A stretch of DNA of 61,791 nucleotides, counting the filler, from Asterionella formosa (lineage: Eukaryota), in the NCBI GenBank assembly GCA_002256025.1. It is 4 parts of 4 records of this genome, joined end to end, with 100 filler letters (N's around TTAATTAATTAA, not from the genome) between each part and the next. Parts side by side here need not be neighbours in the genome. Positions count along the whole stretch, not along the records: positions 1 to 15,432 come from NKIB01005452.1; positions 15,533 to 30,886 come from NKIB01005473.1; positions 30,987 to 46,340 come from NKIB01005482.1; positions 46,441 to 61,791 come from NKIB01005483.1. The stretch is one strand, 5' to 3'. The notes beneath the pieces are model-generated. The model was not told the DNA's origin, made no database searches, and saw only the letters and a program-made list of their open reading frames with translations. This document shows positions 1,757-61,791 of the stretch, piece by piece. The position numbers and the translations under genes were made by a program. Position 1 is the stretch's first letter; each line of letters starts with the position of its first letter.

Positions 1757-3066
1757 CTAATCAAACACGTTCTTTTCACGTATAAAATAAATATGTATAC
1801 TAACGCTCAACGGAGCTTTCTCCAATAGGCATCCTTTTCATATGCAAACATACAGTCTTCTGTCAAAGTGGGAGTGTAGGCACACACTAAATATCGTCAG
1901 TATATAGGATCTGGCCAGAAACTGCAGAAAGGAACTTTAAATTTTTTAACTATGCTACCAAGATTCAAGACTTGCTGCAGATTCTTTCAGAAACAGGATT
2001 CGAATCCCCTTTGAGATTTTCGATTACATCTGCAGGGACGCACTATTACAGTGAAGCTGATACCAGGAAACAAAGGTGAGAGAAAGGAACAAGAGTCATA
2101 TGATTTTCATATCGTTATTTTAATAGCGACAATTCGAGCTCTGGAAAAGGATGTGCGTATCGTCTTTCATTCCCTTGAGAAACTCGCTCACTGGAATACA
2201 AAGAATAAATATGGGGATTTTCTTTCATGGATTCGTTATGTGGATGAGCTTGAAACAGAACAAATGGATAATGTTTCCTGAATATTTGAAACCATTGCAG
2301 GTAGTTTTTATATGTTGGTCATTCTAAGCAAATTGAGGATTTAACATACAAATGCATATACAGTTCCATAACTATTGGTCTATTAGAATATCATTGCATA
2401 TTTGGTGTGATGATACAAAATAGGCACATACAAACATTTGATGTGACGATGAGATTATGGTTCCAGTGAATAAACCATTTGATTAACATATTTCTTTCCG
2501 TCCAGCGGAATATGCTTTGCGTCATTGTGATTCCTTCAAAAATCGCGTATATTTCACTTTTAAAAGAGTGATCTAAAGTTGTTTTAATCATTATTAGCTT
2601 GCTGGGTTGAGCTCCTAGTCTTGGAAAGGTGATGAAATGAAGCCCGAAGCTCCATCGTGAACAACCTTTTCTAGACATTTATTAAGTCTGGGTGAGCGTA
2701 CCAGGGTACCACAGGTCATTACAAACTGGTATACCCCGGTATGTAAATGGACGACCCCCCCCATCATTTCTCGTCCTCAAAAGTTGGAGATGATTTAGCG
2801 GATTAGCATACAAATGTCTAACCTAGATAATTTGAAAACGTGCTGTAAGTGCCCCGGCATCTGAATCCGACATCTCTGCACTACATATGAGTGCTCCAAC
2901 TCGGCTTCGTGTTCGTCATCACAATATCACGGCGCGAAGAAACGTCATAGGACCCCGTTCTCAATTACTCCGAGTACCTGGCACCTGGCACCTGGCACCA
3001 CTGCTAAATGAATACCGGTAGCACAGAAGAGGCTCCGTTCAGCCTTGCTTGAAGCAATGCTAAAGG

Positions 3067-3750
3067 ATGAGTCGTCTTCTATCAAGCAGCAAAGCAATAC
3101 TTGTGATACTTTCCTTGGCGTCGATGTCAATCCATGCGTTCTCGCCATTCTCATGCGCTGCTCATAATGTGATTGTCCGAAAATCTGATTTCGACCCACA
3201 TGCTGGAGAGGAGCCGGAACTTTCAAGGACTGACAGGAGATCTCTGTTCAGACATAGCCTTGCTACAGTATTCGTACTGGCTTTTGCTCCCCCTGCATCA
3301 ATGGCAGTTGTTATGGACAATAGTTCCAAGGAGGCGCAAGTATTTGTTATTGGTCAAGATATGCCACTAGCTGACGCCAAGGCTCGATTTCTTTTGGCAA
3401 AACAAGATTTGAATTACTTGGTGGCACACTACGATTCCATCATTACTCAAGGGGGCGGAGACAACGTTAGACGTTATTTAGGTACAGTCGGGATGACATC
3501 CAACATGTATGGCATTATGAAAGTACTAAAACGATTGCAAGAAGAAGCTGATGATATTGTTGAATATACTGAAACTATGAATGAATTTGATTACTCGCTC
3601 CGGGCAGCTGATACTGCCTGCTATTCTGCCAACTTTGTAGAATTTTCGGCAGCCAAAACCAAACCAGAAAAGTTCTTTGAAGATGCTCTGCTAGAGACTG
3701 AACGAATGTTGGTGGGTTTTGAGGTCATGACGAGGGAATTGAAGCTATAG
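3067..3750 (+). CDS. Plastid thylakoid-lumen protein of unknown function (helical, possibly PsbQ-like fold)
   Basis: 227-aa intronless ORF. Signal peptide ending SIHA-FSP (diatom ASAFAP-type), then twin-arginine DRRSLF, a hydrophobic stretch and SMA (lumenal TAT signal), then a helical mature domain containing GGGDNVRRYLGTVG. Confidence 0.8.
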   Translation: MSRLLSSSKAILVILSLASMSIHAFSPFSCAAHNVIVRKSDFDPHAGEEPELSRTDRRSLFRHSLATVFVLAFAPPASMAVVMDNSSKEAQVFVIGQDMPLADAKARFLLAKQDLNYLVAHYDSIITQGGGDNVRRYLGTVGMTSNMYGIMKVLKRLQEEADDIVEYTETMNEFDYSLRAADTACYSANFVEFSAAKTKPEKFFEDALLETERMLVGFEVMTRELKL

Positions 3751-3851
3751 GCTTTTGTCGATGGTGCCATACTTCACTTCAATGCACGACATTAAGTTAG
3801 GCTTGCATAGGAGGCGGTAAAACATGTATATTATGTTCAGCATGAATAAAA

Positions 3852-6364
3852 TTAGGAGCGGATGGTATGGTCTTCAATATCGCTTATCTCCTGCATCAAA
3901 TAGAAACTTTTACTTTTGTATTTCGCACGCTCCTCTGCCACCAGCTTTTTCGCCCAGAATTCATCATATTCTCCATGACGCCCAGTCCAACGTTCATAGT
4001 TCGTAAGGTGCTCTTTCTTATTTAGCAAACCCTGGTACTTCTCCGGTCGATCTTCAAGAAAAAGCTCCAACTGAGCATCGTGTTCTGCCAAGGACACATG
4101 AGTTAAATCGCAAGAAAATACCCAGGTAAATAGGAGCCCCATCAGACACGTGGATGCTGTCACCGCAAAGATTTTTTTCGTGTCCAAGAACCCAAACGCA
4201 ATCGTTGCCAAAAGTGCCCCGGTCTTACCGGCAAATGCGGATATACCATGACAAGTGCTTCGAAGTTCAGTAGGATACGTCTCCGCAGCCATTACATATG
4301 TCGTTACGTTTGCACCAAAGTTGCCAAAGAATGAGCTGGCAAAGAACAAGAACATGATAACTCCTGACTGTGCTGAATCAAAAATAATGGATGTAATGAA
4401 AAACAAGGCGGCACACATAAAGAAGGAAAACATTTGCAATCGTACGCGTCCCACACTCTCTCTATCAATGACCTTGGCTGCAGCATAGTAACCTAACAAG
4501 GAACAAAAGTTGTTAAAAAGGAGCCTAGAAAATTGAAACGTGAGGGATGTGAGTGACAAAATTTGTTTCAGCACTAGCTGGTTTAAAGGTGAAATGATTT
4601 TTACAAGGTACATACCATCCATTTGTCTTTTTAAACATTGGAAGTAAAGGTGCAGTAGGTGAGTCTAAGGATATGGAAAAACACAAGACAAATACAAGAA
4701 TGAAGATGAACATACCACAATAAGATTTCCCTCGGGATTGATAGCTTGAAATATGGGACCAGAGAATAGCTTCAATCCATAAAATCCAACATCTGAAAAA
4801 AAGTTCGGTGTAGAATGGAGGATATGCAGATTGTGAGAGGACGGATGACACCGATGCAATACACGGTCATTCAAGTGACATACCCCATAAAAACCAGCAA
4901 CCAGCCGTGCCCATCTGAAAAAGGAAAGGAAGTAAGAAGGGATTAGACTTGGAGTACAGAAAAATTACAACCTCAGATAATGGGGAAACTAAAATACGTA
5001 CCAATCGTGGTCCGTAAAACCAAATTGTTTCAAATGTAGTCTTTGTTTTCAACAAATTCCTTCTCTGTGCTCTTTTCTTTTGACGCTCCTGTACGTCTTT
5101 AAAGGACTTTAGAAACAAAATGATGGTCAGATGAGAAGGGAACTACTTCAACTTTCTGGAACTTTAAGGATTCCATGCTACTCACACTTGTTTCCTCGAC
5201 AATGAGAAAACGATAGCCGACCAGCAAGAATATCATCAAGAACCCGACGAAATAAAACGATCGCCAAATCCCATTAAGTGCATCAGAATTATTGCCAGTT
5301 GGGTTGTTCCCAGGATTATCGCAAGCAATACTGCCTTGGTTTCCAAAGTAAATGAGAGCTAGCAACACGGCGGAACCCAAAAATGCCCCAAGCCCCTGCA
5401 TTGCAAAAACTAACGATATAGTCTCTCCTCGTCGTACTGTCATAACGTGGTCGATCTCTGTTCGTTTCTTGCGTTTTTCGAAGCTGTCAAGTTTCGCCAT
5501 ATCGACCCATTCAAACTGTTTCTCGGCAGCACCCGATGCGGTAAGTGGGTATTCTCCTCCAACACCAAAGCCAAATACGGCAAAGAAAGTTGACCATATC
5601 GCAAACTGAGTGTTGATATCGTCGTTCTTTATAAATGTCATGACGCTAATGCCGAGAAACATGAGCGAGCTGGTGATCACTCCTGCATTTTTTCGACCAA
5701 TCAAATCGCATGAGAAACCTATGACTAACATGCCACCCATAATTCCAGCAAACTCGGCATATGAAACTGCATGCAAGTTTCTTGGTGAACACAAGACTGA
5801 ACTTGGGTATTTTCCCTCAGTAGTGCAGACACCAAGGTCTGGAACAAGGCCTATCGGAGTGTTTGGGAAGTGACAGCAACAATCAATGCTATTTGGACAG
5901 TTTTGATCTTCACCGGGAATCCAGCATTCAGGGTATTGACTGTGCCAGATAGTCTTGATCTGACCAGTAGTAATGACAATATATGCCTCCACGAACATCC
6001 CGACTCCGGCAATACATAGCGTCGCAAACCAAGTGAGCACTGATTTAACACTTCCAGCTTTGTATCTATCGGGAAGATGCATTGTCGAATATCGATCTTC
6101 TTCTGACTCATCTCTCACGAGGTCCCGGACAACGGAAAGGGACGATTTAAAGTCAATACCAGCTCTGGCAAACCCCCCACGTTTCACGGAACGTCCTGGT
6201 TCAAAGCGTTCAATGGCTTCGTCCACTTCCACCTCTCCACTGGTGAGAAGCACTGAATGAACAGTCTGACTCTCTTCGGGCCGCCTGCTGTGCCTTGATC
6301 GCAGACCAATATACTCTTCGACTGATGGCGAGATTTCTTCGCTGATGCTTGTCACTGAAGCCAT
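3852..6364 (-). CDS. MFS phosphate:H+ symporter, PHT1/Pho84-like; 6 exons
   Basis: Motifs G..CDLIGRK, GFGVGGEYPL, RRG..ISLVFAMQG, WDVGFYG, AETYPTELRSTCHGISA..GK.GA. Predicted exons 6364-5186, 5106-5002, 4914-4884, 4792-4716, 4626-4616, 4524-3852. All introns are GT-AG, 79-91 bp, and splice in frame. Confidence 0.9.
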
Positions 6365-6605
6365 GGTTTTCCAGTTTTGTTGTGAGTACACTCATCGCAA
6401 GGTGAGTTCACACAGAGTGAAATTGGTTCGTCCCATAATTATTATACCAGTGAGAAATCATAAATACAACGTGAGGGTTGACATCAGGCTTCTCGATCTG
6501 TATCGCGATATCCATGTGCACATGAAACATATATTCATGCATGAGTATGTACAATTGATGTCAACGAACCATTTTGCTTCACATATACGTGAGCGGCATT
6601 TTGAT

Positions 6606-7140
6606 TACCTGGTACCAGGAACCAGTACATACCAGCATGATGAAATGACCACTGTTATTTTAGAGTTTACTATGGACCTACCGGTCCTGCATTCTGGTAT
6701 ATCCCTGATCCCTGAGACTACCGGAACCTGGTACCTGGTAGTCTTTTCGAGCTTTCTACTGGTATGGTGGTACCTGGTACACACGGTCACATGATTGATT
6801 TTACGGTACCTGGTACCAGGTATGTACTACTGGTTGTAGTCTACCGTAGGTGTCATGGACACAACGAACGATGCTGTACGTAACAGGGTACCTGGTACTT
6901 GGTACCAGTACAGCAGACTACCAGGTACCAGTACAGCAGAATGCCAGGGACCAGGTACCATTTTTGCCTGCTACCACGTAAAATGAATTCGTGCAGTTGG
7001 CTTGCGCAACAAATAAAAAGAATATCGGTGGCATTCTTCTCGTCAATTTCTCCGAATTCTTTGCTAAAGTTGGAGTCGCGTCTCCATCAATTCTAGACAC
7101 CACCAGCATATTTATATTCTATTCATAGCTACCGGTACCG
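6606..7140. repeat. Cluster of TA-CCWGG-TA / TA-CCGG-TA palindromes
   Basis: More than 10 chained copies (e.g. GGTACCTGGTACCAGGTA at 6805-6822) upstream of the transporter. Confidence 0.85.
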
Positions 7141-7411
7141 TAGTTCATTAGAATTAGCGTTTGTACTGGATTTCTCCGGTTTTCTTGGATTATATATACA
7201 ATAGAGACATCAAATTATACACAGTTACATGCAACGGACAGTTCTTGAGCAGCTTCAATTTTTGTTCACTTTGTTTGATTCCACAATTGCTGTTCAGCCT
7301 ACATCAGCTTTGCATTGCAATTTTCACATATAATACTTGTGCACTAATAGAGGCACCTGTTAGTAGAATAAAAATTATTATTATACATTCGCAAATGCAA
7401 CATGACGACAG

Positions 7412-10400
7412 CTACACAATCTCGTAGCGATCATCAAGGCGCATCTGATCATCCTCCATCATGTTGAGGTCGTCGTAAAGAGGTCCAAGTCTCAACACCG
7501 GCAGTTTTGTCGTCCACGAATCACAACGGGCTTGATATTTATCAATCAGCTTTCCAAAGCACCTAGGCCTGGCGAAGGACCCATCTTCCAAAATGATTGG
7601 TTTTGTGTAGGTACGAAGCAGCAGCGACGATGTTACTACTGATACGCTGGAAAATGCCATCATGAGACCCGCAAACTCGGGTGGAAGTCTCCAACTTAAA
7701 AAGGGGTATAACGCACCCGCCGCAAAAGGGAGGGCCAGCAGGTTATATCCCATGGCCCAAACAAAATTGATTCGAATGCGGCGGAAGACGACTCGAGAAA
7801 GATGAAGTGCAACAACCACGTCATGTAGTGACGATCGAACCAAGACCATGTCGGCTGCTTCGACTGCAACTTCGGTTCCAGCACCAAGGGCAATTCCAAC
7901 GTCAGCTCTTGCCAGCGCTATGGCGTCGTTGATGCCGTCGCCCACCATAGCAACGCGACCATTTTGGTGCTTATGTTTGCTTCGGTTATTAACGGAACGT
8001 CTTTTTTGAAGTCTCGTGACCAAATCTGCCTTTCCTTCCGGTTTGACACCAGCACAGACGTTGGCTTCATCAATACCAACTTGTTTGGCAACGGCCAATG
8101 CTGTAACTTCATCGTCTCCGGTGCACATCCACACGTCAATTCCAATTTTTTGCAAAGCGAGAACAGTGGTTTTGGCTTCTTGTTCAATGGGATCAGCAAT
8201 ACCCAGGACACCAATAACACGACGACAATGGGGCTTGCCAGAACAGTCCACTCGTTCCAAGTACTGTTTTTCAGGAAGTATACTCACATAAACTCCAACT
8301 TTTCCACTCTGTCTCATATCTTGAATGTCAGCATCGCCAACGCTTTCTGTTATAATCTCATTGCTTGTTAACAGAGACTCATTAACCCACGATCGATTTC
8401 CTACTCGAACTCGCCATTCTCCCCAATACGGCTTACGGATTAAGCATTCGACTCCAGATCCAATGGAAACGTAAAAGTCACTGACTTCAACGCTGTCATG
8501 AGAGCATGTCACATCACCACCCCACAAAGCCTTGGCACCGTTGACAATTGCTTTGGCGAGAGGATGTTCTGATTGTTTTTCGGCACAGGCAGCCAACCAC
8601 AACGCCACATGCTCGCGAGGTACGTTTGAGGGCAAGTATCGCAAAATATCATCGTTGGGGGAAATAAGATCCTTGACATGCTTCAACACTGCCTTTCCGG
8701 TTGTCAATGTACCTGTTTTGTCTAGAACAACAGTATTAATACCATGGGCACCCTCCAAGACGGCTCCACCCTTGATCAAGAGTCCATGAGTGGCTCCGAC
8801 ACCAGTTCCAACCATGACAGCAGTTGGTGTAGCCAATCCAAGGGCACAGGGGCATGCCACTACTATGACACTAATTGAGCTCATGATAGCCAAAAAGAAT
8901 CGATTTTCTCCATGATTAAAAACCAGCCAGCCAATGAAAGTAAGTACGGAAAGAAAAAGAACTGTTGGAGCAAAGACACAAGCAATCTTGTCTGCTTGAG
9001 CTTGAATTGGAGCCTTTTGTGATTGAGCTTGCTCCATCAATTGTACAATCTTAGCTAAGACAGTGGCATTTCCTGATGCTGTCACCCTGACAAGTAATGT
9101 ACTCAACTGGTTGACTGTCGCTCCAAAGAGTGGTTCATTAATCCGTTTGGCAATGGGGAAGGGCTCCCCAGATAGGGCTGATTCGTCCACATAGGCGCTC
9201 ATACTGTCATCACTTGTTGCGATCAAAATACCATCAGCCGGGATACGGGAACCTGGCAAAACATATAAATAATCTCCGGCCCGTACATCGGCAGCCGACA
9301 CATCCACGGTTTCTAGTGAGGTCAAGTCCACTGAGCTGTCCAAATCTCCAACAATCCCCACGACTTTCAGAGCAGCATGAGGTTGAAGTTCCATCAACAT
9401 TTGCAATGCCGATGCAGTCTTGCCCTTGGCATATGCTTCCATAAATTTCCCCAAAGTGACAAAGGTAAAGAGCATAGCCCCTGTTGCAAAGGTTGGTGAC
9501 ATTGTTGCGGTGACATTACCCAGACATTGAGATCCAAAGATAACAATGGAATATAGATAACTTGCTGTTGTTCCCATGACTACCAAAAAGTCCATGCCAA
9601 GGAAACGTCCATTGGTCCATCCCTTGTAGGCTGCCTTGTAATATCGTGCTCCAACTCCAAATTGGACCGGCGTTGCCAATATCAACATGAGCCATTCTTG
9701 CAATGGAGGTGTTGTTTTCGTATTCATGAGGATCGGGAAGGTGTGATGATGAAGAATAACTAGTGGGATTGTCAAGGCACAGGATATCAGAAACAACCTT
9801 TGCCACATGTGCAATTCCGCCTTTCGTGATTCTTCTAGTTGAGCTGCATTTTGTCCCAACGAGGATGATGAATGTGCTCCACCACCCAACTGTAAAATGG
9901 AACAATCATATCCACCGTTTATAACGGCATTACAGCACATGGTGGCAATGGCTTCGACACTTGTAACAGTATCATGATGGCTGTCCAAGACCTTAACTTG
10001 TGCTCGATGTGTAGTCAACATGACAGATGCACCTACTACACCAGGTACTTGTGATAGCAATCCTTCAACACGACCCACACAAATGGCACATGACATTCCT
10101 CCAACATGAAATACTATTATTCCAGTCGCTTCAGTAATAATACTAGTTTCATCCAGGTCGTCATCCAAAGTTTCTTCTGATGTCGTAGTACTGCTACTCC
10201 AGGTTGTGTGCTTTTGTAGGTGCTCTGCAAGTTCCTGTTGTGACTGCATAATTGATGCATCAAACCCAACACATTCGATCGCTTCCTTGGCGTCGTTTTG
10301 AAATTGTTCCAAGCAGTGTCGATAGTCTGAAAGAGTATGGACAGTGACACTGGCGTACGATTGTGCAAATGATGCAGTCGCTTGTACGACTCCTGGTAGT

Positions 10401-10869
10401 GCGTTCAAGGCATTTTCGACTGTCGTCGCGCAGCTTTTTTGACACATCATGCCGGTAACTTTGAAGTGTATGGTAATGGGTCGTTCCTTGAGTACAGTAG
10501 CATCGAATCCGACGCACTCAATAACATTCTTGGCATCGTCCTCCAATGTGTCCGTCATGGAACAACACGTGACGGACGCATACTGATCGGCATACGAAAC
10601 ATCTGCGTGCATGTATCCTGGCAAGCCCTGTAAGGCATTCTTCACCGTTGAGGCTGTTGTTTATTGGAATTATTGTTGTCATGAGAGAGAGAGAGAGAAA
10701 GGAACGCCGTGTCAATGAGGAAAGTTTCAAGAACGAACAACAATTTGTACACAGCACTACTACAACAGCTCGTACCGCAATTCATTTGACACATCATTCC
10801 AGTTACATGCAGATGAACCGTTTGTTCAGTTGCTGCCGTTGCAACTATTGTAGTATCGCCCATCACCAT
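7412..10869 (-). CDS. P1B-type Cu(I)-transporting ATPase (ATP7/HMA5/CopA-like); 2 exons
   Basis: Three N-terminal HMA domains (GMMCQMNC, GMMCQKSC, GMSCAIC), DESALSGE, ACPCALGLATP, DKTGTLT, SEHPLA, GDGINDA, YN and MAFSS Cu-site residues. Exon 1 10869-10776, GT-AG intron 10775-10654, exon 2 10653-7412. Confidence 0.95.
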
Positions 10870-11002
10870 GATGCAGTCGTACCGGTTGTCGAAGCAGTTC
10901 GTTCGTTATTGTTGTTCAAATTTTTTTTAAATGAATCGATGTTCTGGTAGTTGCAAATGTCTGTTTGCATTTTTCATCTGAAGATTCCTTCTTGTGCGGA
11001 TG

Positions 11003-11632
11003 TACCTGGTCGTTACCAGGTACTCGGAGTACCAGGTACCTGTGTGATCATAGAATACGTGTATATCGCTTGCTTGCTTAGTTACCGGTAGTAATACATA
11101 GAAGATGCACACAAGAATGTGTCAACCATGATTATTGCTCCGAGTCGCCGTTCCAGAATAATAACAATATACTGGTAGTGCGCATCACACTCAGGTACAA
11201 CCACGGGACCATACATAAGCATTAATCACTGGAATCGCTCAGGCACTTTTAGCCTCCTAGTCGTGGGCATGATGACTAAGTGTGATACCCCACCTTACCA
11301 TCAGGTACCTGGTAACTTTTACTAATGCATTGCGTTTGTGGTCCCTGGTACCTGGTATGAAGAAGCTACAAACGATGTATGCACTGCAGAGTCTACCGGT
11401 ACTCGAATAGTAAGTAAGCAACAAGCTGAACATCTGATAAATGTCCGTTGTCGTCTTTTGTTGTCTTGTGCATCTTACCATCAGTCATTTTTACCTGAGA
11501 GTCATCTTTAATAATTCATGCAAGGTTCCAGTTACCTGTAGAACCCCTACCCCTAGCTCGACCTAGGGTTTAAAAACCACAGGGATTGATTCAGAGTACC
11601 TGGTACCGGTACCTGGTATGGTAACAGGTACC
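11003..11632. repeat. Cluster of TA-CCWGG-TA / TA-CCGG-TA palindromes upstream of the Cu-ATPase
   Basis: TACCTGGTACCGGTACCTGGTA at 11597-11618, plus TACCGGTA at 11083 and 11394. Confidence 0.85.
11541..11595. repeat. Hairpin terminus-like motif, copy 2
   Basis: CCCTAG-CTCGAC-CTAGGG stem, an A-run, then TTGATTCAGA; matches 1712-1756. Confidence 0.55.
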
Positions 11633-24752: not shown

Positions 24753-24919
24753 TGTTGAGGGGAACCTTATCGTGAATAAAGGTGAACTACAATATTATGA
24801 CTATTCTATTGCTGTTCCAAGTACATCGTTGTTAGCACTCACACATGTACCTAATCTGGTGGCTGCGCCGGTTTGGTTCGTACGGCGCATGTATGGAGCA
24901 TCATATGCAGATATTAACA
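24753..24919 (-). repeat. Copia 1 5' LTR (167 bp)
   Basis: Direct repeat of 19374-19546, upstream of gag on the minus strand. Confidence 0.95.
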
Positions 24920-27504
24920 GTTATGACTCGGAGTCAAACGAGTCAAACGATTCGAATGAGTCATCTTTGATGTACCAAGCTCTCATCAACCACACATTAT
25001 ACCTTGTTACTCCGCCTATAATGAGCCGGACGACCAGTGGAGTGTTAAAACGCTTGCTCTGGCGAAGAAGGCAAGAGGATTCCGAACGATGTACTCCAAG
25101 AACCGCAACCCGTGTTCTGACAAAGAGTACAAAGTCGAGACAGACAAAGGAGTCAGGGCTATCTACGAGGCCAACGACAAGGCGTACCAGTTGCTCATCA
25201 TGAGCTGCACCGGAATCGCCTTCGGACTCGTAAACCAAGCCAAAACGAAAAATTTGATCGATGGCGATGCATACATGGCGTGGAAGAACCTCGAAGCGAG
25301 GTATGACCCCCATTCTGTGTCGGACCTGATCCAGCTGGCAAGCGATTTCAACAAATGCAAGCTGAACGATAGCTCCTCTGATCCAGACGAATGGTTCATT
25401 GAGCTCGATCTAATACAAAGCAAGATGATGGCGATCGACCCGTCATTTGAGAAGAAAGAAATGGAAGTGATTGCGAACATTATCGACAAGCTTCCAGTGG
25501 AATACAGCGAGGTTGTTACAGTCGTCGAGGGCATGACAACAATCAGCCTCAACGAATTGAAAGGAAAGATCTACAAACGAAAGCTAAAGGGCACGAAGAG
25601 CACAAAGGAGATCGCCCTATTCACGCAGAAATACAAAGGTATCTGCAAGAACTGCGGCAAACAAGGGCACAAGGCCGACGTGTGCCGATCGAAAACGAAC
25701 ACAAGCGGAATGAATGCAAACGGTACAAACGAAAAAAATGAGATAAAGTGCTATAATTGCAATAAATATGTCGGGCATATTGCAAGAGACTGCCCGGAAC
25801 CAAAACGCGCACAACGCGGCGAGAAGAAAAAAGAAACCGGCATGTACGTCTGAATGTGCGAGGAGATTACCGGTATGGAGGCGTTTGATGCTATCCCTGT
25901 TATGGACGTCACGCAGAAAACTACCGAGACTCCTGCTGAAGAACTCCTATGCGTGTGTTTTGTTCCTACAATGGAAGACGAGTGGTACGAAGACCAATAC
26001 TGCGCATCAAGCAATGGAACAGAGCGCCGGCTCGCGGACACTGGGGCTACCACACACATCACTATGACTGACGAATACATGACAAACGTCGAAAATGTCA
26101 ACGTCTAGGTCATTGTCAGTGATGGTAAAGAGGTGGTATGCACGAAACGAGGTGATATTCTGATTACCAATAAAACGTGCTCCATGTTACTACGCAAGGT
26201 ACTCTACACTCCACACTTCCATAAGAATATCGTCAGCATCTAGGTCATTGTCGGTGATGGTAAAGAGGTGGTACGCATGAAGGGGTCTGAGTTGAGTCTA
26301 CATAAGGAAGGGTACGACAACAAACTAACCTTTTCTTGTGAGGATCAAGGCGTCCTTTACTACTTCAAGGGGAAACGTACCCTACAATCCGAAACGGCCT
26401 TGTCTATCCACGACTCGACAACAAGCCATACACCCTATCCTACTCCAACGATTACCAAGAAACCAACGCAAATTGACATCAACGAGGCCCACGACAAATA
26501 CGGCCACATCAGCGAGGCATCCCTTCGCGCAACGCTAAAGTCCCTCGGTATTGAACCTACGGGCAAGATTCAGTCGTGTGAAGGCAGCGCACTGCCTAGC
26601 TAAGGCAAAGGCCAAAGCGGTACCTAAAGTCACGACCCTCAAGGCCTCTACTCCTGCTGAACGATTGTACGTGGACATTTCAGGTCCCTACAAGAAATCT
26701 CTAACTGGAAGCAACTACTGGATTCTATTTGTGGATCAGTACACAGGCAAGGCATGGAGTTATTTTGTTAACAAGAAGAGTCTTTTGGCGAACCTCGCGG
26801 ATGCCCTACTGACTACACTCAAGTCAGCTGGCTATGTAGTACAATTCCTACGCTGCGGCAACGCCGGTGAAAACGTGACCAGTCTAAGTATCGTCTGCAC
26901 CACGCAGGGTATTCAGATTGAGTATACTGCCCCCCATACTCCTCAACAGAACGGAGTCATGGAACGAAAATTTGTGACGATACAAGACCGAGCATGTGCC
27001 CCATGTTCAGCGCAAAACTGTCAGACGAATACCAGGGGCTACTGTGGGCCAAGAGTGTCCACATGCACACGCGACTAACGAACTCTGTTGCTAACTCGAA
27101 TACGGGAAAATGCCCCGATTGGCTTTTCTACGGCTTTCAGCCTAAGATTTATCCTCACCTGATTCAGTTTGACAGGGTGGGGTGGGCCACGATTCGGACG
27201 CCAAGGCAGAAACTAACCCCAAAAAGTGTCAAATGTGTCATGCTTGGATACAGCCATGACCACGCCCGTGATACCTACCGCATGTACAACGTTGCAACGA
27301 AAAAGGTCTTCAACACAAGAGACCTTAAATGGGCCGACTGGCATGGAAAGAATGCCAAACCCACTGCGGACATGGACGAATTCACCACAGACGGATCCGG
27401 CATAGATGAGGAATTTGACACTTCTACTAAACCTTCCAACGCAATACCTCCTGACGAACAAGGGGCTGATATGACACTACCAACGAAACCAGACGATCCA
27501 AGTA

Positions 27505-30886: not shown

Positions 30887-30986
30887 NNNNNNNNNNNNNN
30901 NNNNNNNNNNNNNNNNNNNNNNNNNNNNNNTTAATTAATTAANNNNNNNNNNNNNNNNNNNNNNNNNNNNNNNNNNNNNNNNNNNN
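30887..30986. other. Assembly gap / contig spacer
   Basis: 44 N + TTAATTAATTAA + 44 N. Confidence 0.98.
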
Positions 30987-33288: not shown

Positions 33289-33306
33289 ACAGTTACGGAT
33301 ACCCTC

Positions 33307-34664: not shown

Positions 34665-35471
34665 ACCAAAATGGACTGATGGAGTCGGCTGACTTTCTAA
34701 CCAATGATTGTTTCTTAAGTAAATTCAAATTATAACCGTAATTACGAAAAGGCAATAGCTGCTAAACCGAGCCAACTTACAGTGAGCAGTTTTTTGGCGA
34801 TGAGTAAATGCTCTGAGCAAGCAATGAGCAAATGCTCGGAGCAACGAGCAAAATTTTCGGGTAGTGAGCAAAAAAGTTCGGATAGAGCAAAAGTGATAAG
34901 GTAAGAGCAGAAGCAAAAAGTCATGGGCAAAAAATTTAACCTCGTAATTTTTAATTTAGGCTGAAACAATTTCGTCTTCATTTGTCGGAATTAGAGCAAC
35001 AATTAAATACCGGTGGTAAATTCTATGCAATACCGGTCATTGAGAAATTTTAATTATTCCACCATTATTTACTTGAATGACGGGCCATGAGGTAGACCCG
35101 GTAGGCCTAGTATTAGCAAAAGCCTGACTCTATGTATGTATTTATTGGTAATGTTTTGTCCCTAAAAACTCTTGTTACTAAAATCACATTGACCATGTCG
35201 GTATTATTCGTCTGTTGGTTAACTCATCAATTTTACAACCTCCCACGCCGCTTGATTTATCAACATAGCCGCCATGATCAGCATATTCAGTAAACGCATC
35301 GGCCAAGCAGCGCGGGAGCACACAATTTCGTTCATATACGTCCTGTTTAGTGTTGAGCATGGCAAATCCACGCCTTCATGACCATCCAAATCACGTCCAA
35401 AACCTCTTGAGCTTGACAGTAGGATACCTGGAGTCGAAACTGTACAGGGATTCCTCAAATAGGATGCTACA
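34665..35471 (-). repeat. 807-bp inverted repeat, left arm
   Basis: Reverse complement of 41361-42167; about 8 substitutions by eye. Confidence 0.95.
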
Positions 35472-41360: not shown

Positions 41361-42167
41361 TGTAGCATCCTATTTGAGGAATCCCTGTACAGTTTCGACT
41401 CCAGGTATCCTACTGTCAAGCTCAAGAGGTTTTGGACGTGATTTGGATGGTCACGAAGGCGTGGATTTGCCATGCTCAACACTAAACAGGACGTATATGA
41501 ACGAAATTGTGTGCTCCCACGCTGCTTGGCCGATGCGTTTACTGAAAATGCTGATCATGGCGGCTATGTTGATAAATCAAGCGGCGTGGGAGGTTGTAAA
41601 ATTGATGAGTTAACCAACAGACGAATAATACCGACATGGTCAATGTGATTTTAGTAACAAGAGTTTTTAGGCACAAAACATTACCAATAAATACATACAT
41701 AGAGTCAGGCTTTTGCTAATACTAGGCCTACCGGGTCTACCTCATGGCCCGTCATTCAAGTAAATAATGGTGGAATAATTAAAATTTCTCAATGACCGGT
41801 ATTGCATAGAATTTACCACCGGTATTTAATTGTTGCTCTAATTCCGACAAATGAAGACGAAATTGTTTCAGCCTAAATTAAAAATTACGAGGTTAAATTT
41901 TTTGCCCATGACTTTTTGCTTTTGCTCTTACCTTATCACTTTTGCTCTATCCGAACTTTTTTGCTCACCACACGAAAATTTTGCTCGTTGCTCCAAGCAT
42001 TTGCTCATTGCTTGCTCAGAGCATTTACTCATCGCCAAAAAACTGCTCACTGTAAGTTGGCTCGGTTTAGCAGCTATTGCCTTTTCGTAATTACGGTTAT
42101 AATTTGAATTTACTTAAGAAACAATCATTGGTTAGAAAGTCAGCCGACTCCATCAGTCCATTTTGGT
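41361..42167 (+). repeat. 807-bp inverted repeat, right arm
   Basis: Reverse complement of 34665-35471; continues into a GC-rich hairpin at 42162-42198. Confidence 0.95.
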
Positions 42168-42252: not shown

Positions 42253-42970
42253 TACCTGGTACCTGGTACAGGCATGTTGAGCTGCACATGATCTATGTAA
42301 CAATACACCTGGTACTGTAGCAGTACAAGTTGCAGGGATGTACTTACAGTTTTATGGATGAATATATACCGGTAAGCAATTTAACGGATAGTAATATACT
42401 ATCTTGCCTACATCATACGGTACCTGGTACTGTCATACGTCGCCATATTCATATGCATACGACCATGTTTCAGTTAGTGGTTTGGTTTGGAGGTAGGGGT
42501 GTTGATCTATGTGAGGCTTTGTCATGATACCTCAGAGTAAAAAATATCTTTAGTTTACCGGTAGTAAGTATTTCATGTGATTTTACTTTGCATACTGAAT
42601 ACGTATGTAAACTGACGACCATATGTTCACAATTTGAACAAAAGTTACCTACCGGTACAACAACGCCATACTGCTACATAATAAACATAATGGTAGGCCA
42701 TTTTTAAGGTTTGCTCATATATGGCTGGTTTGATTATATATTTACGGACAAATATTCGCAATATTCGCAATATTCGGACTTTCCCTGAACTCTCTGACTT
42801 CATTTGTTCAAAATTTGAATATTCGCTGACAACTGACTTCATTTGCTGACTACCTGGTACCTGGTACCGGTACTGACATGAAGTCGCTGCCTGCTAACTT
42901 CAAATTGCTGACGTCACCAAGCAACTACTTTGTACACAGGAAGAGACCAACTACGGTACCGGTACTGGTG
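42253..42970. repeat. Cluster of TA-CCWGG-TA / TA-CCGG-TA palindromes
   Basis: TACCTGGTACCTGGTACCGGTA at 42851-42872, plus TACCGGTA at 42367, 42556, 42650 and 42957. Confidence 0.85.
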
Positions 42971-43659: not shown

Positions 43660-45807
43660 TCACTGTACCAATGTCACCACAGGACTGGGTATTGGAATCA
43701 CAGCAATTGTTCCTGGGAGAATGGCTGCACCCGGTTTGTCTGGTTCACCTATAGGTTGTTCGCGTTGGGAGCATTTACAGACCTTTTGAACGAAAACACG
43801 CCAGCAAACAAAAACAACACCAACACCAAAAAGCGAAGGGAGAACAATACGTAGTATGATTTTGGTTGAACTGGCTGATGCAATAGGAACTGGACAGAAA
43901 TCAGATGGAATAGTTTCGCCAACTGGGCAGCAGAATCGATCCTATAAGTATACAAGAATATACAGAGGAGCAATTTGAGTGAGTGAGATTCTCTTTGTGA
44001 CACAATCTTCTTGATATATATCATATAACAGCACTTGGACTTGGATTACTTACAAGAAATTTCATGCCAGCAAAAAAGGCATTGATCCACAAATTTTGTG
44101 GATGATCAGAAACCAAAGGGCATTTGGTGGCCTCAACTTGAACAAAGCCACTAGCGTTGCAAGCGTTTGGATCACAAATCCCTTCATCACCAGCAAAGCT
44201 ACCAGCAAAGCTGAGACGACGAAATGATTCCACTTCACAACGAGTCAGGTTCAACGAAGGGCAATTGGCAGTCGATGCTTTCACAATTCGATCAATGGCG
44301 GCTTGTTGATTCCCGGCTTCAGAGCCCAAAGCCTTACTGATAGCAATCAAAGGAAAATTCATGCCAACCACACCCAAGAAAAGAGGAGGATCATGATTAC
44401 GATCGTAGACAGGTGCTGACACTGTGGTACCAACAACACCACCAGTGGCGAAGCTGTAAGGCTCCACCCAAGCTACAGCACCCTTGTTACCAAGTCCAAG
44501 GGCAAATAGTCGATAGTAGGACGTTAGACTCTCGAACAGCTTGCTCTCATCATCAATCTTGGACCAAACGCCCAATTCAGTGGAGCAGGCAAGCTCCTTT
44601 GGGAATTTGTGAACATCTTCATTTGCAGTGCCAATGCTGTAAGTGAAAAAGAGGATGGGCTTGCCACTGGACTGCATGGTTGCGTTGAGTCTGGTTGTAA
44701 CTAGCTCAATGACATCCTGCTCTGTCACATTTGAAGGATCTGTCATTACACCATCAGTCAGGAAAAGAATGGCAGAGTTACAGTTGTTGTGAAGCTCTGC
44801 CGCAATGGTTTTATCCATAGTGTCAAAGGCACTTCCAAGGGCAGCATAGAAGTTGGTACGCCCATCAGCCACAAGACCATTTATGGCGTCGACAAGACTT
44901 GCTTTGTTTGTCGCATTCGCAGTCAGCATGCGACCTTCACTGTCGCCAATCACGCGTGAAGACGAGGCAAAGGGGACAATCGCAACACGATCACCAACTG
45001 TTAATGTCTGAATCACACGAATCGCTGCTTTCTTGAGAAGTACAAATCGCTGACCTTGGCCGAAATTCATTGATGCTGATGTATCAAGAACTAAGACAAT
45101 GTTTTTTGGACCAGAGCTTGCTGCAATAAACCATGGTCGGGATAGCAGGTCAAAGGAGTCGCAATTCTCAAAAGGACGACCGGGAAAGATACGAACCATT
45201 CCTTCTTTTGACCCGAAAAACATTGGAGGAGAGTCTACTCCAAAAGAGCGCCAGTAGTCGGCATCAGTACGACGTTTCTCACTAAAGAAGCTATCAAGTT
45301 GTCTGGTGTAACACACACTTTCAATCACCTACCGGTATATACGAAAGGGAGGGGGGGACGATTACCAATAGGTAAGTACACTCCTGCTGCGACATCAAAC
45401 GAAAGTGTTCTACTAGCAACCAAAAAACACATGTGGTTTACCTGTGGATTCGTTGGGTTGCCGTCTTTGCCGTCGGCAATCTTGCTAGGCAAGATCACAC
45501 TTGAAGAGTTGAAGTCAAACAAGGCACCACAGCTGTCACTGGGACCCGAGCTGCAGTTCGTTACTAGCTCATCGCTTTTATAGCATGTTGCGCTTGAAAA
45601 CTGGGAAACGCAACTATCGTAGTTGTTGTAGCTGCAGTCATTAAGAGCGGTGGTGCATCGATCTTGAAAGGCTTCTTCGACTTGTTCGGCGAGCTCAAGT
45701 ACATCCTTCTCCATCTTGTCAATGAGCTTATCCAGGTCCGCAGTACCCGCTTCAGTGAAATTCAGAAGGAGGAGTATGGTGGACGCTACAATCAAGAATA
45801 AGTTCAT
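43660..45807 (-). CDS. VWA/Cache-domain type I membrane protein (Ca-channel alpha2/delta-like); 3 exons
   Basis: Signal peptide, RPWFIAASSGPKNIVLVLDTSASM (MIDAS DxSxS), GRTN, FLTDG, WVEPY..A....GTTVSAPVY, C-terminal TM helix. Exons 45807-45442, 45328-44054, 43941-43660 with GT-AG introns. Confidence 0.9.
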
Positions 45808-46340: not shown

Positions 46341-46440
46341 NNNNNNNNNNNNNNNNNNNNNNNNNNNNNNNNNNNNNNNNNNNNTTAATTAATTAANNNN
46401 NNNNNNNNNNNNNNNNNNNNNNNNNNNNNNNNNNNNNNNN
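46341..46440. other. Assembly gap / contig spacer
   Basis: 44 N + TTAATTAATTAA + 44 N. Confidence 0.98.
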
Positions 46441-46441
46441 C

Positions 46442-48424: not shown

Positions 48425-48972
48425 TACCGGTATCTCTCTTATGGGTGATACATTGTGACTCTTTGGAGCTATCGTATCAGTGTGGATGAACAAGCATACG
48501 GTATGTCATGCATGACGGACTGGTTGTTTCCAGTATTGTATCAACCTGTTATTAAAGTACGGGTACCAGTACCATGGCACCTGGTACCATTGTCAAACAA
48601 ACCCAAGTACGATATGGTACATGGTACCATACTCCGAGTACCTGGTACTGGTATATTTAGACCGTTATTGCTCAGGAAAATAGAATACCAGTACTCCGAG
48701 TACCTTTTATCAATTGTTTCGTTTGCATTCGTAATACATCACTTTCTCACTTATTCCTTTAATCAATCACTGATTCGTTCGCATTCTTTTGACATCACGC
48801 TGACACTTTTTCCTCCAATCAATTGATTTGTTATCGTTCACCCTCCTCCAACTTGCGAAGCGAACACTAAATTTCCATTGACAATTACTTAACATGATAC
48901 CAGAAATATTCGCGTCTATATAATAACACCAGATGTACAAATTGCGAACCATACTACCTGGTACCCAGTACA
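48425..48972. repeat. Cluster of TA-CCWGG-TA-type palindromes upstream of the LRR gene
   Basis: TACCGGTA at 48425, TACCTGGTACTGGTA at ~48639, TACCTGGTACCCAGTA at ~48955. Confidence 0.8.
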
Positions 48973-51253: not shown

Positions 51254-52015
51254 GGCAAGGGAGTTTACGGATGACATCAGCGCCCTTTATACACAAATAC
51301 ATTCCTTCTTTGTTAGTTTTTGTGGGATGGACTGGCCTGCCTTAAGTATTGACCACCATCCCAGTACATGATTTATTTCACTTTTCCTTGACCTCTCTAC
51401 ACTCACAGCTGCATTGACTCATGTTTTTGTCTGGAGTGGTGTCCAGTAATTGGAGTTGATAAAGCAAAACAAATAGTAGTATACCGGTATTTTTTTATTT
51501 CAATATACCGTATTTGTCTTTCAAAATAATAGCCAAGCATATAATATCAATGACCTTTGGTATGTACATAATGTTCCTGATAAGAAATACATAGGATCTA
51601 CAGTTTTCTACACAAAATCGAGCATACTCAGTACCATTAGGTCTATGGTGGTGCAATGTGGTTCAGCGACAATATGACGTCAGCAAGGAGTCATTTTGAA
51701 ATTATATTACTGTGGTGGTTCGCTACTATCCTCCGTTTTCTTGAGGCAAACAATCTTGGTATTCTTTCGGGCACCGTAATATACTAGGAGATGGCCTTAT
51801 TTAGTTGAAAATTCATTACCGGTACCTCATTACCGGTACCTCCTTACCGGTACCTGGTAGTAATCTGTGTGATTTAAAATACTTAGAGTAGTTTATTAGT
51901 AGTTTACCGGTGGTAAATCTGTGATGAATGGACCATTATATATATGTACGTGGTAGGCTACGGCCGCTGACTACTACAAAATACAGATCTTACATGAATC
52001 TGATCGTGATCATAT

Positions 52016-55000
52016 CGTCTGTAAATAAAAAACCGTTAGGCCTAACAGTTTTGCTGTAAGACCAACTGCCCCAACAATTCTCAGTATGACGTATCATTTT
52101 TTGATTGATCATTAAATAAAACTGATTGATCATACAGAAATATTGATTGATCATACAAAAAAACTGATTGACATCAACTAACGTTTTGGTGTTCGATCTA
52201 CTAGCTAAAGATGGTAATCCTGAGATCAAATCAGTTATTCATTCGGTCTAACCTTTGGAATGCTAATATCAAATAGAATTTTTAGCTTTCGATCTAATGT
52301 TCATTACTACTGATCTAACTTATTTCTCTCATAGATCATACCTATTATCATGTTCGATCAATGATGAACACAAATCGAATTAAATGGATTGATATTTAAC
52401 ACTCAAATATTCTAGCCTACTTCTGGTCACCATACTTTCCACTGTGCATCCTCTATCAGAATGAGCACACAGTGGTCTTCAATACCTCAATTTTCACTTC
52501 TTCCGGTAGCTATGTTTAGATCATTGCCTCTTCAAAATGAAATGAGAGAGTAAACGAAATTGATGATGCTTTATTCGAACCTCTACCATTGCGAATGGCA
52601 GCAAGTCACATTCTCCAATGTTCTTGTACAACTTTCCTGTCCGAGATAATACCAACAATGTTAGCAAAACTGTTGTTTGTTATGTGGAATAGAATGCATT
52701 ACCGGCATGAGATCTTTTAACAATATCTCAACATTTCCTCTTCTTCAAAAAGTATGTATAACATACATCTCTGTATGTCTTGTAACTTTTTCGAAGGAAC
52801 ATTTAATACCCTACCAGTATGTATGATTAGATAAAATATACAAGACTTAACAGGAATTCGAATACCCGGTACTGTGAAACTGTACCTATTACTACGCTGG
52901 TACTGTGAAACTGTAGGTTTGCCCTACCAGCATTCCCTTCTTCCCCTTGTCTCAATACCCGGTTGGAACATGATGTGGCTACAGTGAAACTGTACCTATT
53001 ACTATGCTGGTACTGTGAAACTGTAGGTTTGCCCTACCAGCATTCCCTTCTTCCCCTTGTCTCAATACCCGGTTGGAACATGACATGGCTAAAGTGAAAC
53101 TGTACCTATGGCTAAAGTGACACTGTACCTATGACTAAGCTGGTCATACTATGAAACTGTAACTTTGCGCTACCAATCTAATGTCTATGACTGAGTATGT
53201 TGGTGCTGCATTGCTTCCGATCCAGCACTTGCCCACTGTATAATCCTATAGTTGACAGACCATTATCCCTTTCTGCTTCCTTGTTCTGTTACAGTCACGT
53301 TTTTCTTGCAACTTGACATTTGCACGCTATCGATAGTGCCATATATCACTTGTTATCTGGAATGGCAAATGTTCCATTTGCTACAAAGAATGGAACGATC
53401 TTGGTTGTGAAGGGGATACCGATCGCAGATTTTTCAATCAGGAAAAACCTGTTTCTATGGAGTTTTTCATGTCTGTTCAAGAGACAATGGAAGAGTAAGG
53501 AACGACTCTTACTGGTTAGATACTTTAATCATGATGACAAAGGCAAGGAGAAGAGGAGACTAGATGACAGTGTCCTGGATTTTGTTCTCAACAAATTCTA
53601 TATGGTCCTAGAGTCTGGCTTGTTTAAAAAAACATTTGAAATTTCAAGGAAATTTCGGAATCATATAGGACCAGCGATGATTTTATGGAAAACTCACTTT
53701 CCATGAGATTTTAGACTACATCAGAAAGAAAACAATATGCCACCAAATGCACCCATGAACTACATCCAGACTGGCGACCATGTCCTGTTTCAATAATTCC
53801 AACTCGTTACTGCTGGATAAATGGGATAAATCATTTTCCTCCTTGACCTGTTCTTTATTTACTTTCCCAATCACTCCTACAATTTCGGAACTCTTTGGTG
53901 ACAAGTCAAGGACTGCTTCTTCCGGATTGGCAGCCATGTCTGGAGTTGCCTTTAATTAACATTTTGTTTTTGCTTTGGAAGGGGGAGATTTTATATCAAG
54001 TCTATCAAATTTGATAGACTCAATTAGACACTCTGAAGAAAGTCTATGGGATTAGGCTGTCCTATATAGTGCCTCTGATGTTGCCGATAAAGAGATTTCT
54101 TAAAACAATGGGATAGTACAATGTTATTAAGCAAAGTTACGATTGTTATTTCGAACCTCCTGCTATTCAAGGTTCATGTAATGCTACTATTTCCTGAATG
54201 AAATGAAGCTACTACTTCCTGATTAGTGCTGATGTTGCGGCTCTAATTCTGCAGCATACAAACGTGCTCGCCAATAGCTAGTCAATGAGAATGGAAGACC
54301 AATGATTAAGGCCATGAGCAACAAACTGCGCCGCCATCTGGTCCATCTTCACTTCGATCCACATATCATCTTGAAGAATAGATTCGAAATACGGATCGAT
54401 GTTCGCAATGGGCGAATTATGATCAAAAGGTACTATCTTCTTGATTTCGGTTGGAATTGGAATTGGGTATGGCCCACAATGCATCGTTCTCCAATTCTGT
54501 CGTATAAATTAACCAAAGCTTTTGATTTCGAGTAACAAACAAACAATCAAACTTCGCCAGCATAATTCCCCAACAATATCGAGACCATATCATTCGTTAT
54601 CAGACTGAGATCATCGTCGTCCTCGCAAGAAGGTAGCTCGTAAGGGATTCAACGAACGCACATGGCTTTTATGAAATTCGATTACTGATATGCGAATGGA
54701 GAGATAAGAATGACAAATAGTACTACCGGTACAAGAATTTGATCAAAGCATGTACCGGTAGAGCATTCAAATCAGAATGGCAACAAGGAACACATCGTTG
54801 TTGCACAGAATTCATTCTGATAGCATCGTTCGGTACAAGGTTTACATACACGTAAGGTGATTTGTGTAAAGTCATAACCTTCGCTAAAACAATAAATGAT
54901 CAAATAACATCAGCTATTGATCAATCAAACAACGTATCAATATATCAAAGCATTTGCTTAGCATATTAGTTTTGATAACTAATATAAATGACTTCTATCT

Positions 55001-59627: not shown

Positions 59628-59798
59628 CATGGTCTTAGAAAGCGCATTACAAGTTAGTTTCAAATTTTGAAACACTTGTTACTCCATGGTCTTAGAAAGC
59701 GCATTACATGTTAGTTTCAAATTTTTTAAACACGTGTAACTCCATGGTCTTAGAAAGCGCATTACAAGTTGCTTAGTTTCAAATTTTTTAAACACTTG
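59628..59798. repeat. Three ~57-bp tandem units
   Basis: CATGGTCTTAGAAAGCGCATTACA... at 59628, 59685 and 59743. Confidence 0.95.
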
Positions 59799-60085: not shown

Positions 60086-60483
60086 TAAAGGTGGAACACA
60101 GCAGCAGTATCCATACTTGAAACAATTGGTTGTAGGTGCTGCTCAGAACTGACTTATAGTACTGGAATAGTTTGATTTACATTTACGTTTGATATAATAT
60201 TAGGTGGCATGTATGCTTTTGAAACTACCAGCATATAATCATCAGCATACTGGTACATGGTACCTGGTACTCCGCCCTCTGGGCGAAAACAATTGTGTCA
60301 AATGTTCAAATTTATCTGGGGCCATTTTGACTTGTAAGATTTTCTCCGGCTCAATAACCCTAATGAGCACAATTACTACATAAGCTACAGATCCATGTAT
60401 AGTATATCATATGTGGTTGGTTAAAATTTGGCAACTACCGTTATGTATCGAAAAACTTTTTTGAGCTTTTTCGATGTTCACTT

Positions 60484-60816
60484 ATGGCTACTATCTCGAG
60501 AAAAATGCAGGAGATGCATGAGGACCCATTTTTCTTCGAACCATCTACTCTCAGTATACATACAAAGTACGACATAACAGTAGAACCACGGCAACTTGCG
60601 TTCAATTATGGAATACACAACCCCGAAAGAAGTGTTCAGGATGGGAAGGAAGAAAACGACAGTATGCTTGTTTTTGAGGAATGTAACCATAAGATATGCG
60701 GCAGTATGGTCCATCTAAATGTAGCAACTGTAGAAAGTATACCAAACGACAGTTATTCTGTTCACATCATAATTATGATAGTGACAAGTTGTTTTCGGTT
60801 TCCCGCCAATATTTGA
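60484..60816 (+). CDS. Hypothetical 110-aa ORF (possible gene fragment)
   Basis: ATG-initiated ORF with plausible composition and a palindrome cluster upstream (60247-60270); no recognisable domain. Confidence 0.25.
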   Translation: MATISRKMQEMHEDPFFFEPSTLSIHTKYDITVEPRQLAFNYGIHNPERSVQDGKEENDSMLVFEECNHKICGSMVHLNVATVESIPNDSYSVHIIIMIVTSCFRFPANI

Positions 60817-61791
60817 GTGGCCAGCCGATACCATTGCTAGCTACAGTAGAAACAAAGGAGCAATTGGTGCGAACTATATTTCCGGTAGCGGTCGAATGAT
60901 GATATACAGAGTAAAAGGTCCCTAGTACGGTACCAGTATATAATGTCTAGCCGTTTGCTGGACGGAATGTTCATATTGCCTCTTGATGCTTAATGCCTGG
61001 TTATGATAAGAGCTCGAACTCGATTTGACGAAATGGAAGTCGCGCGTATTTTTCAAGAAGTACACGAACTTCATTAAATAACGCGAACTTTGTAAGAGAA
61101 CGCGAACTTCGCAGAAGAACGCGCGACTTGATTTTCGAAAGATATTTGAAAAATAAGCGAGCAGCGAGGTCTTTGCATGATACACACAGGGAATTTTCGA
61201 CGTACCGAGAAAGTACGGCGTTTCCCGTAATGTACCCCCCCGGTAATGTTAGGAGTGGACCGTTTAGACATACGTAAGCTACGTAAATGCCGGCATTCCT
61301 TCTTCCTACAGGAATTGATCCGTGGTTCATACGTTTGAAATACATACCGGTATTCTTTCATTGATGATTACCAGTATGGAATCCACCGTCCGCAGGTGAA
61401 GTTCTTTCCTATCAATACATACATAGATAGAGTTTTAGTACGACTGGTATAAAATAACACTTTTGTGCTTTGTTTTTGCAGTTGCATTTTTGTTTTTTGC
61501 CCCATTTCGCTCTGTGATGGACGAAACGAATCATCTCACAAGAGTTGAAGCATCGCAGTCACCGCCTGTGATCCTCCACAATCTAATATACTTCTACTGC
61601 TACTACTTCAACACTCTACCATGTCTACCAATGGCAGTAGCCAAGACAGCGGAGGACTCTTCAATAATTCGAACTTTCTGATTCTGTTTTGGGTTCTGTC
61701 ATTTTTCTTCTTCTTGGTGGCGCCTTTTTGTATCAGCAAGAGAGGTCGTATGAAATGCATCAAGAGGATCCGAGAGCGACGCTGGAATGTG

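Follow-up and report, generated by a model that had tools for sequence, protein, structure and literature searches.

The window examined here is a 61,791-nt stretch of the genome of Asterionella formosa (assembly GCA_002256025.1), made up of four pieces of about 15.4 kb joined by N44-TTAATTAATTAA-N44 linkers at 15433-15532, 30887-30986, and 46341-46440. The four pieces appear to come from the nuclear genome of a freshwater diatom. They hold long, nearly intron-free open reading frames (ORFs) for heavy-metal P-type ATPase, MFS transporter, P450, LRR, VWA, and DUF6824 proteins as well as copia-type retroelement ORFs, the Atlas cluster closest to an ORF that lacks Pfam matches belongs to Bacillariophyta (score 0.97), and the sequence of 2600-12000 is present in contigs of at least 20 sequencing runs, mostly labelled as freshwater, lake, or algae metagenomes, at 0.10-0.95 of the sampled words. 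Our subject is a family of short palindromes, such as CCGG and CCWGG, that are bracketed by TA dinucleotides and gather beside the genes, and that the original prediction took for excision footprints of transposons spread over 2698-61352. Because the linkers split the window, this interval is not one contiguous locus, and features are not readable across the linkers.

The original prediction had counted at least 26 exact copies of TACCGGTA; there are exactly 26, at the places it named, where 100 dinucleotide-preserving shuffles averaged 0.42 and never exceeded 2. TACCWGGTA also occurs 26 times (mean of 0.33 expected), TACCAGTA and TACTGGTA occur 11 times each (about 2.0 and about 2.6 expected under an order-3 Markov model), and TA-CTC(C/G)GAG-TA, which emerged when TA-X-TA words with palindromic X were listed without bias, occurs four times (0.05 expected). 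These five types, the last written TACTCSGAGTA, make up 78 units. TA stands on both sides of 26 of 116 CCGG, 21 of 51 CCTGG, and 5 of 34 CCAGG, and the frames next in frequency around CCGG and CCTGG differ from TA by one transition. Of 16 flank pairs tested, TA alone yielded this set of palindromes (CCGG 26 versus 0.63 expected, CCnGG 28 versus 0.88, and CTCnGAG 4 versus 0.05), matches to the other pairs being re-readings of the same words or AT-rich words. The units have the form of a Tc1/mariner footprint, in which a few leftover bases stand between two copies of TA. Words one change away from TACCGGTA are mostly transitions, with the CpG transition in the lead (22) and transitions in the TA frame next (9 and 5), a spectrum that looks like decay. 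A GTAC core of the SBP/CuRE-like kind, considered for the words beside the copper ATPase, was rejected: GTAC as such is not enriched (289 versus 274 expected), so the signal is TACC...GGTA. Outside the TA frame the bases around TACCGGTA are near-random, and what the cluster regions have in common does not exceed 23 nt and consists entirely of chain sequence; the units are therefore not copies of a longer repeat, and the idea that the clusters are decayed copies of one repeat was dropped.

The one complete LTR retrotransposon in the window offers a filled and an empty site. Its two long terminal repeats (LTRs) differ by 7 substitutions in 167 positions and by one indel, with ACAA-TACCGGTA-TTATG on the left and ACAA-TA-TTATG on the right, a difference of exactly CCGGTA at a TA. 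Because the LTRs were identical at integration, the indel postdates integration and is not a point mutation. It is exactly the change expected by the scar model (TA versus TA plus four bases plus TA), and so gives one case of the filled and empty sites of a Tc1/mariner footprint. We judge a gain in one LTR to be far more likely than a loss in the other, because a loss would need the word to stand in the ancestral LTR and then to be removed to the base. The site lies inside a retroelement rather than in a host promoter. No CCGG adjoins it as a template for slippage; two other copies of TACCGGTA lie 75-88 nt upstream of the LTR unit, and templated repair is thus possible. The original prediction had pointed to indels between LTR pairs as a check, and the only LTR pair in the window does differ by CCGGTA at a TA, without fixing the direction of the change.

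Other paralogous sequences in the window were compared in the same way. At two further unit sites with a paralogue, 17188/19227 and 56835/57392, both paralogues are filled. The first of these lies in a direct duplication of about 170 nt (17104-17271 and 19143-19324, about 89% identical with 6 gaps) that flanks the DUF6824 ORF; TACGGTA and TACCAGGTA/TATCAGGTA occur in both copies and are therefore older than the duplication. Paralogous alignments of at least 89% identity contain four indels of at least 4 nt: the CCGGTA of the LTRs, GCTA at TAGCTA, ATTA, and a 9-nt microhomology indel. TAGCTA is itself frequent (31 versus 9.4 expected), mostly in gene-poor, repeat-rich DNA (for example, at 1522, 7126, and 33865-33874), and the paralogue pair that differs by GCTA reads TAGCTAGCTA in one copy and TAGCTA in the other; TAGCTA could be another unit framed by TA or simply a product of slippage.

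The units often run together by sharing a TA, and the two chains quoted in the original prediction lie in clusters 3 and 6 (Table 1). The gap between consecutive units is -2, that is, one shared TA, in 14 cases, and is never 0, 1, or 2. Twelve of the 14 touching pairs join unlike units, and the two same-unit pairs compare with 3.2 expected from the unit frequencies if neighbours were independent. Random placement at any base would give fewer than one shared TA, as estimated from unit densities. When the observed number of units was instead placed on random TAs in each cluster, each event adding one TA, 6.95 +/- 2.35 shared TAs resulted and 14 were reached in only 0.4% of runs; the re-use of TAs is thus of the expected order and about twofold in excess. 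Four of the 14 shared-TA pairs belong to a recurrent composite word described below.

Chains of this kind could also form with no transposon at all, if a 6- or 7-bp palindromic micro-repeat were spread by slippage and by templated insertion during break repair (of the pol-theta type), with TA as microhomology and nearby copies as templates. Tandem duplication does contribute to the arrays. Tandem Repeats Finder reports nine short period-7 arrays of ACCTGGT-type units, and true tandem copies like those of short tandem repeats of period 6-7 stand at 2976-2999 and 42253-42269. Nearby templates are common, since 21 of the 26 TACCGGTA have another TACCGG or CCGGTA within 300 nt, the presumed gain in the LTR is 75 nt away from two copies, and the strand bias and GG/CC flanks of TACCWGGTA given below suit copying. 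Head-to-tail copies of one unit, the mark of a slippage satellite, are nevertheless found only locally, at 2976-2999 and 51813-51855; because 12 of the 14 touching pairs are unlike, slippage is not the main source of the chains. Many units are solitary, with unrelated flanks: for 5 of the 26 TACCGGTA the nearest half-copy is more than 300 nt away, as at 25868 (1660 nt) and 45330 (1749 nt). Slippage and repair would also leave unexplained why the same words recur in all four pieces and, judging from joining contigs, across the genome. We consider it unlikely that these processes alone produced the units.

The placement of the units relative to genes agrees with what had been claimed for them from the sequence, namely that they spare intact exons and cluster beside genes. 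None of the 78 units falls in the 19,641 bases of ORF-supported coding sequence, which make up 32% of the window (P about 1e-13), and their density is 4.4/kb within 1 kb of eight host genes, 0.26/kb in LTR-retrotransposon bodies, and 1.14/kb in the rest of the non-coding DNA. Where they are densest, in the 350 nt of 6606-6960, units account for about a quarter of the sequence by a rough count. Such a distribution is also what one would look for if the units were bound by a dimeric transcription factor or a general promoter factor, with half-site GGTA/TACC at a spacing of 0 or 1 in homotypic clusters around gene starts. Like the CRE TGACGTCA and AP-1 TGASTCA dimer sites, the words are an 8-mer and a 9-mer of one palindrome with two spacings, enriched near gene starts; three ORFs have a unit 47-149 nt ahead of their first ATG; variants leave the inner C alone and fall on the outer TA; and the composite word lies upstream of three different genes. 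Against this, the distance of units to the first ATG ranges from 47 to 1037 nt with no fixed value, no preferred distance or orientation to the gene start was found, and clusters also lie 3' of genes (51482-51859, and 6606-7142 on the 3' side of the ATPase). Sites of the CRE and AP-1 type arise by point mutation and selection, whereas here one copy was gained or lost in a retrotransposon LTR as a clean 6-bp block, and units overlap by exactly TA 14 times where fewer than one such overlap is estimated from random placement. Searches of open-access text found no literature linking such a motif to diatom promoters. The double variant TACTAGTA, counted as a check for a degenerate half-site, occurs twice versus about 4.6 expected for an independent degenerate half-site by an arithmetic estimate, numbers too small to weigh on either side. 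A binding site as the sole account of the words seems to us improbable.

The composite word, TACCAGGTACTCGGAGT(A), is a 17/18-mer with 8 matches at no more than 3 mismatches versus 0.06 expected, and is found once as a 21-bp TA-flanked palindrome (11014-11038). It suggests either a longer copied unit, such as a transposon tip, or a composite functional site. [quoted passage not shown] The recurrence of the composite would fit, as would the two tips that face each other in the palindrome, and a candidate TIR pair at 11014/11605 encloses 588 bp. This pair was rejected: about 12 of 14 nt are common to its ends, and depth over 10816-11330 is about twice the baseline, unlike that of a multi-copy element. 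Copies of the composite share nothing beyond about 16 nt, the cluster regions likewise show none of the identity that whole elements would have, and the CTCGGAG continuation follows only 3-4 of the 26 TACCWGGTA. TACCGGTA, moreover, cannot be a TIR tip, because its flanks are random on both sides. We think MITE tips a very unlikely origin of the units. A scan of viral contigs for the 18-mer composite gave no matches.

Comparison with other sequence collections bears on whether the clusters are real and whether they vary. Contigs of runs X2, X4, X8, and X9, from four studies, were placed on 1-15432 with 0-27 gap letters, and cover clusters 2 and 3 with 0.3-1% differences (divergence of about 0.6%); because these clusters recur in contigs from four studies, they are no artefact of assembly. 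At 6740, 6822, and 11597 the chains are joined by contigs from other loci, and the unit words are therefore common elsewhere in the genome. Among strain indels, the best 12 of 55 all lie in high-copy repeats. A metagenome scan with the P-ATPase returned 13 loci of 26-58% protein identity, none with orthologous flanks; two of the 13 contain a single TACCGGTA each, which is of little weight given that the loci are mostly coding. A scan of viral contigs with the retrotransposon protein gave no matches.

Weighing these observations, we think the likeliest reading, with about an even chance of being right, is that a TA-targeting (Tc1/mariner-like) element with CC...GG tips left the units as scars of its excision. 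Such an element, of the Tc1/mariner/pogo kind and duplicating TA when it inserts, would land at a TA in open gene-flanking DNA, with tips that would read 5'-CC(A)GG...CC(T)GG-3'. Its later excision would proceed by 5' cuts two or three bases inside the element, and end-joining would retain both TAs together with 2+2 or 2+3 tip bases, giving TA-CCGG-TA and TA-CC(A/T)GG-TA. TACCAGTA and TACTGGTA would then be CpG-deaminated TACCGGTA or four-base leftovers of a single end. Every scar would add a TA that later events could re-use, so that chains of unlike units would form, while point mutation would decay the scars and tandem duplication would enlarge some arrays. The transposon as agent, the identity of its tips, and open chromatin as what directs it are the parts that we infer here. 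The interpretation offered originally thus stands as far as insertion at TA, the sharing of TAs by unlike units, and placement beside genes are concerned; it is qualified by the absence of a donor from the window, by tandem growth, and by the bias of TACCWGGTA. The explanations can also mix, in that scars can seed the words, slippage can extend them, and some can since have been co-opted.

Footprints of known Tc1/mariner elements (Sleeping Beauty, with TA-C(A/T)G-TA; Mos1; ZB) resemble the units in having TA on both sides of a few tip bases, and the filled and empty pair here differs by a leftover plus TA. Mariner 5' breaks in vivo are placed two or three nucleotides inside the element (PMC2642840), and Mos1 cuts are described as staggered by three bp with the 5' cut within the inverted repeat (PMC5481204); leftovers of two or three bases per end fit such cleavage. 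Sleeping Beauty leaves cag/ctg between the TA copies (PMC5224488), an odd-length palindrome with an ambiguous centre, C-W-G there and CC-W-GG here. The 5' inverted terminal repeat (ITR) oligonucleotide of Mos1 is given as TA-CCAGGTGTAC, and the ITR starts TA-CCAGGT (PMC2642840), like TACCAGGTA here. Known footprints differ in being single events at experimental or mutant loci, whereas here there are about 4/kb in gene-flanking DNA, chained by TA. The match is a resemblance and would not by itself prove membership in the family. The plant elements Ac/Ds, Mu, and Tam3 make 8-9-bp target duplications and leave scars that are variable in sequence. Their excision scars alter promoters and can create new alleles, a likeness to the scars proposed here, where by contrast a fixed, TA-framed word is over-represented. 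Searches of open-access text found no description of genome-wide scar pile-ups or of the motif in diatoms.

Several results weigh against excision scars. The most direct concern the donor, for which the original prediction had named a TA-flanked TIR element with CC tips and a DD34-type transposase: in the window, no TA-flanked element with CC tips was found among 118 candidate TIR pairs, the CC-tipped pairs being motif chains that pair with each other, and no DDE transposase was found among 36 ORFs in a Pfam scan. Among the leftover classes that excision could give, the 3+3 class TACCATGGTA has 0 occurrences and the single-end three-base class TACCATA is not enriched (8 versus 13.4 expected). 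Leftovers of Tc1/mariner elements are usually 2-4 bp (PMC7913693); of those here, CCGG and CCAG/CTGG have 4 bases, and CCWGG and CTCSGAG exceed the range with 5 and 7. Of the 26 TACCWGGTA, 17-19 have GG before them and 17 have C after them, mostly as GG-TACCWGG-TACC, and the central base on the + strand is T 21 times and A 5 times; because symmetric scars predict neither, both features tell against a symmetric scar model. The T majority at the centre holds in all seven clusters that have the word, with no consistent relation to gene direction. At position 3 of TACCGGTA, the inner C, there is no excess of C>T variants (2 versus 1.6), unlike at the TA positions, and a spared inner C with varied TA positions resembles the profile of a binding site. 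The recurrence of the composite word also counts against scars, as do two arrays made by tandem duplication: (ACCTGGC)x3.4 at 2976-2999, whose copies share one T-to-C change and were therefore copied after the mutation arose, and a 14-mer repeated 3.1 times at 51813-51855, which multiplies TACCGGTA. Finally, presence and absence are seen at only one of the three unit sites with a paralogue in the window, the two LTR copies available there do not themselves fix gain versus loss, and a contig of run X4 that spans cluster 3 (9598-11670) with 0 gaps shows no polymorphic scar there.

Table 1. Clusters and single occurrences of the TA-framed units, and the retrotransposon with a filled and an empty site.
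Feature	Position	Strand	Context	Content
Cluster 1	2698-3020		Upstream of ORF 3067-3750	TACTCCGAGTA-CCTGG (2966-2983); (ACCTGGC)x3.4 (2976-2999)
TACCGGTA of cluster 1	3013-3020		47 nt before ATG	
Cluster 2	6606-7142		Between MFS transporter ORF (5099-6364, -) and 3' end of Cu-type P-ATPase ORF (7412-10612, -)	11 perfect units and degenerate ones; chain TACGGTACCTGGTACCAGGTA at 6802-6822
Cluster 3	11014-11618		Upstream of P-ATPase ORF	11 perfect units; chains TA-CCAGG-TA-CTCGGAG-TA-CCAGG-TA at 11014-11038 and TACCTGGTACCGGTACCTGGTA at 11597-11618
Cluster 4	16609-17196			7 perfect units; TACCAGGTA at 17188 within duplicated segment, paralogue at 19227 = TATCAGGTA
Cluster 5	19048-19344		Upstream of DUF6824 ORF (18048-18797, -)	TACCGGTA at 19048, 19326, 19337
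LTR retrotransposon	19374-24919	-		LTRs 19374-19546 (173 nt) and 24753-24919 (167 nt), each TG...CA
5-bp target duplication	19369-19373 and 24920-24924		Flanks LTR retrotransposon	GTTAT
Filled site	19414-19421		Left LTR	TACCGGTA
Empty site	24793-24794		Matching place of right LTR	Lone TA; 82-nt restored query 97.6%, ungapped
Cluster 6	42253-42964			10 perfect units, TACCTGGTACCTGGTACCGGTA at 42851-42872 among them
Single TACCGGTA	45330-45337		107 nt upstream of first ATG of VWA-domain ORF (-)	
Cluster 8	48425-48963		Between P450 and LRR ORFs	8 perfect units; composite copies ACTCCGAGTACCTGGTA at 48631-48647 and a second at 48686-48702
Cluster 9	51482-51859		Downstream of LRR ORF	Tandem (TCATTACCGGTACC)x3.1 at 51813-51855
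TACCGGTA pair	54724-54760			29 nt apart
Scattered units	60248-61376			TACTGGTA 60248; TACCTGGTA 60261; TACGGTACCAGTA 60926; TACCGGTA 61345; TACCAGTA 61369

The surrounding DNA holds other repeats as well. A further TACCGGTA, at 25868-25875, lies in a second, truncated copia-type element, 15 nt past the stop of its gag ORF. Very high-copy repeats occupy 1-2060, 11632-12360, and 13906-15432, and in run X2 their summed contig depth reaches as much as about 900 times that of single-copy sequence. Within the first of these, the high-depth contigs of all four runs skip 90 nt at 165-256, with GT..AG ends, and the skip may reflect either a repeat variant with a deletion or a copy lacking an intron. 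ARAGORN did not call the tRNA-like stretch near 15018-15090; neither the tRNA scan nor a bacterial promoter scan contributed anything on the units. An inverted repeat pair of 807 nt, 99% identical (34665-35471 and 41361-42167), encloses 5.9 kb with ORFs without a Pfam match; it has no obvious target duplication, its right arm stops 86 nt before cluster 6, and either a large TIR element or an inverted duplication could account for it. Another inverted repeat, of 768 nt and 94.7% identity, lies between two of the window pieces (15533-16291 and 33307-34074) and includes a palindromic, MITE-like unit of about 490 nt (33014-33505) whose 199-nt arms show 82% complementarity. There are 9 copies of the telomere-like word TAGGGTTA versus 1.2 expected (751, 1728, 21623-21672, 46185, 56745, 57302, and 60355), in part among short GGTTAG/GGTAGG arrays at 21602-21669 inside the retrotransposon.

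Excision scars are known as rare, single events, and, to our knowledge, the DNA transposons of diatoms have been little studied. It is possible, though on the whole we doubt it, that a family of TA-targeting transposons in this diatom lands almost only in open DNA beside genes and prefers its own scars (GG-TA-CC), so that scars pile up to several per kb of promoter and form both a fossil map of accessible chromatin and a supply of CpG and CWG palindromes for co-option. If so, at about 4 scars/kb beside genes, promoters in this lineage would be subject to a measurable mutational force from the traffic of transposons and not just from their resident copies, and the density of scars would record where chromatin was open over evolutionary time. 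An over-represented k-mer that motif finders would call a promoter element would then have a mutational rather than a selective origin, which is a caution worth heeding when motifs are sought in the compact genomes of protists. A highly active DNA transposon in diatoms would be implied as well.

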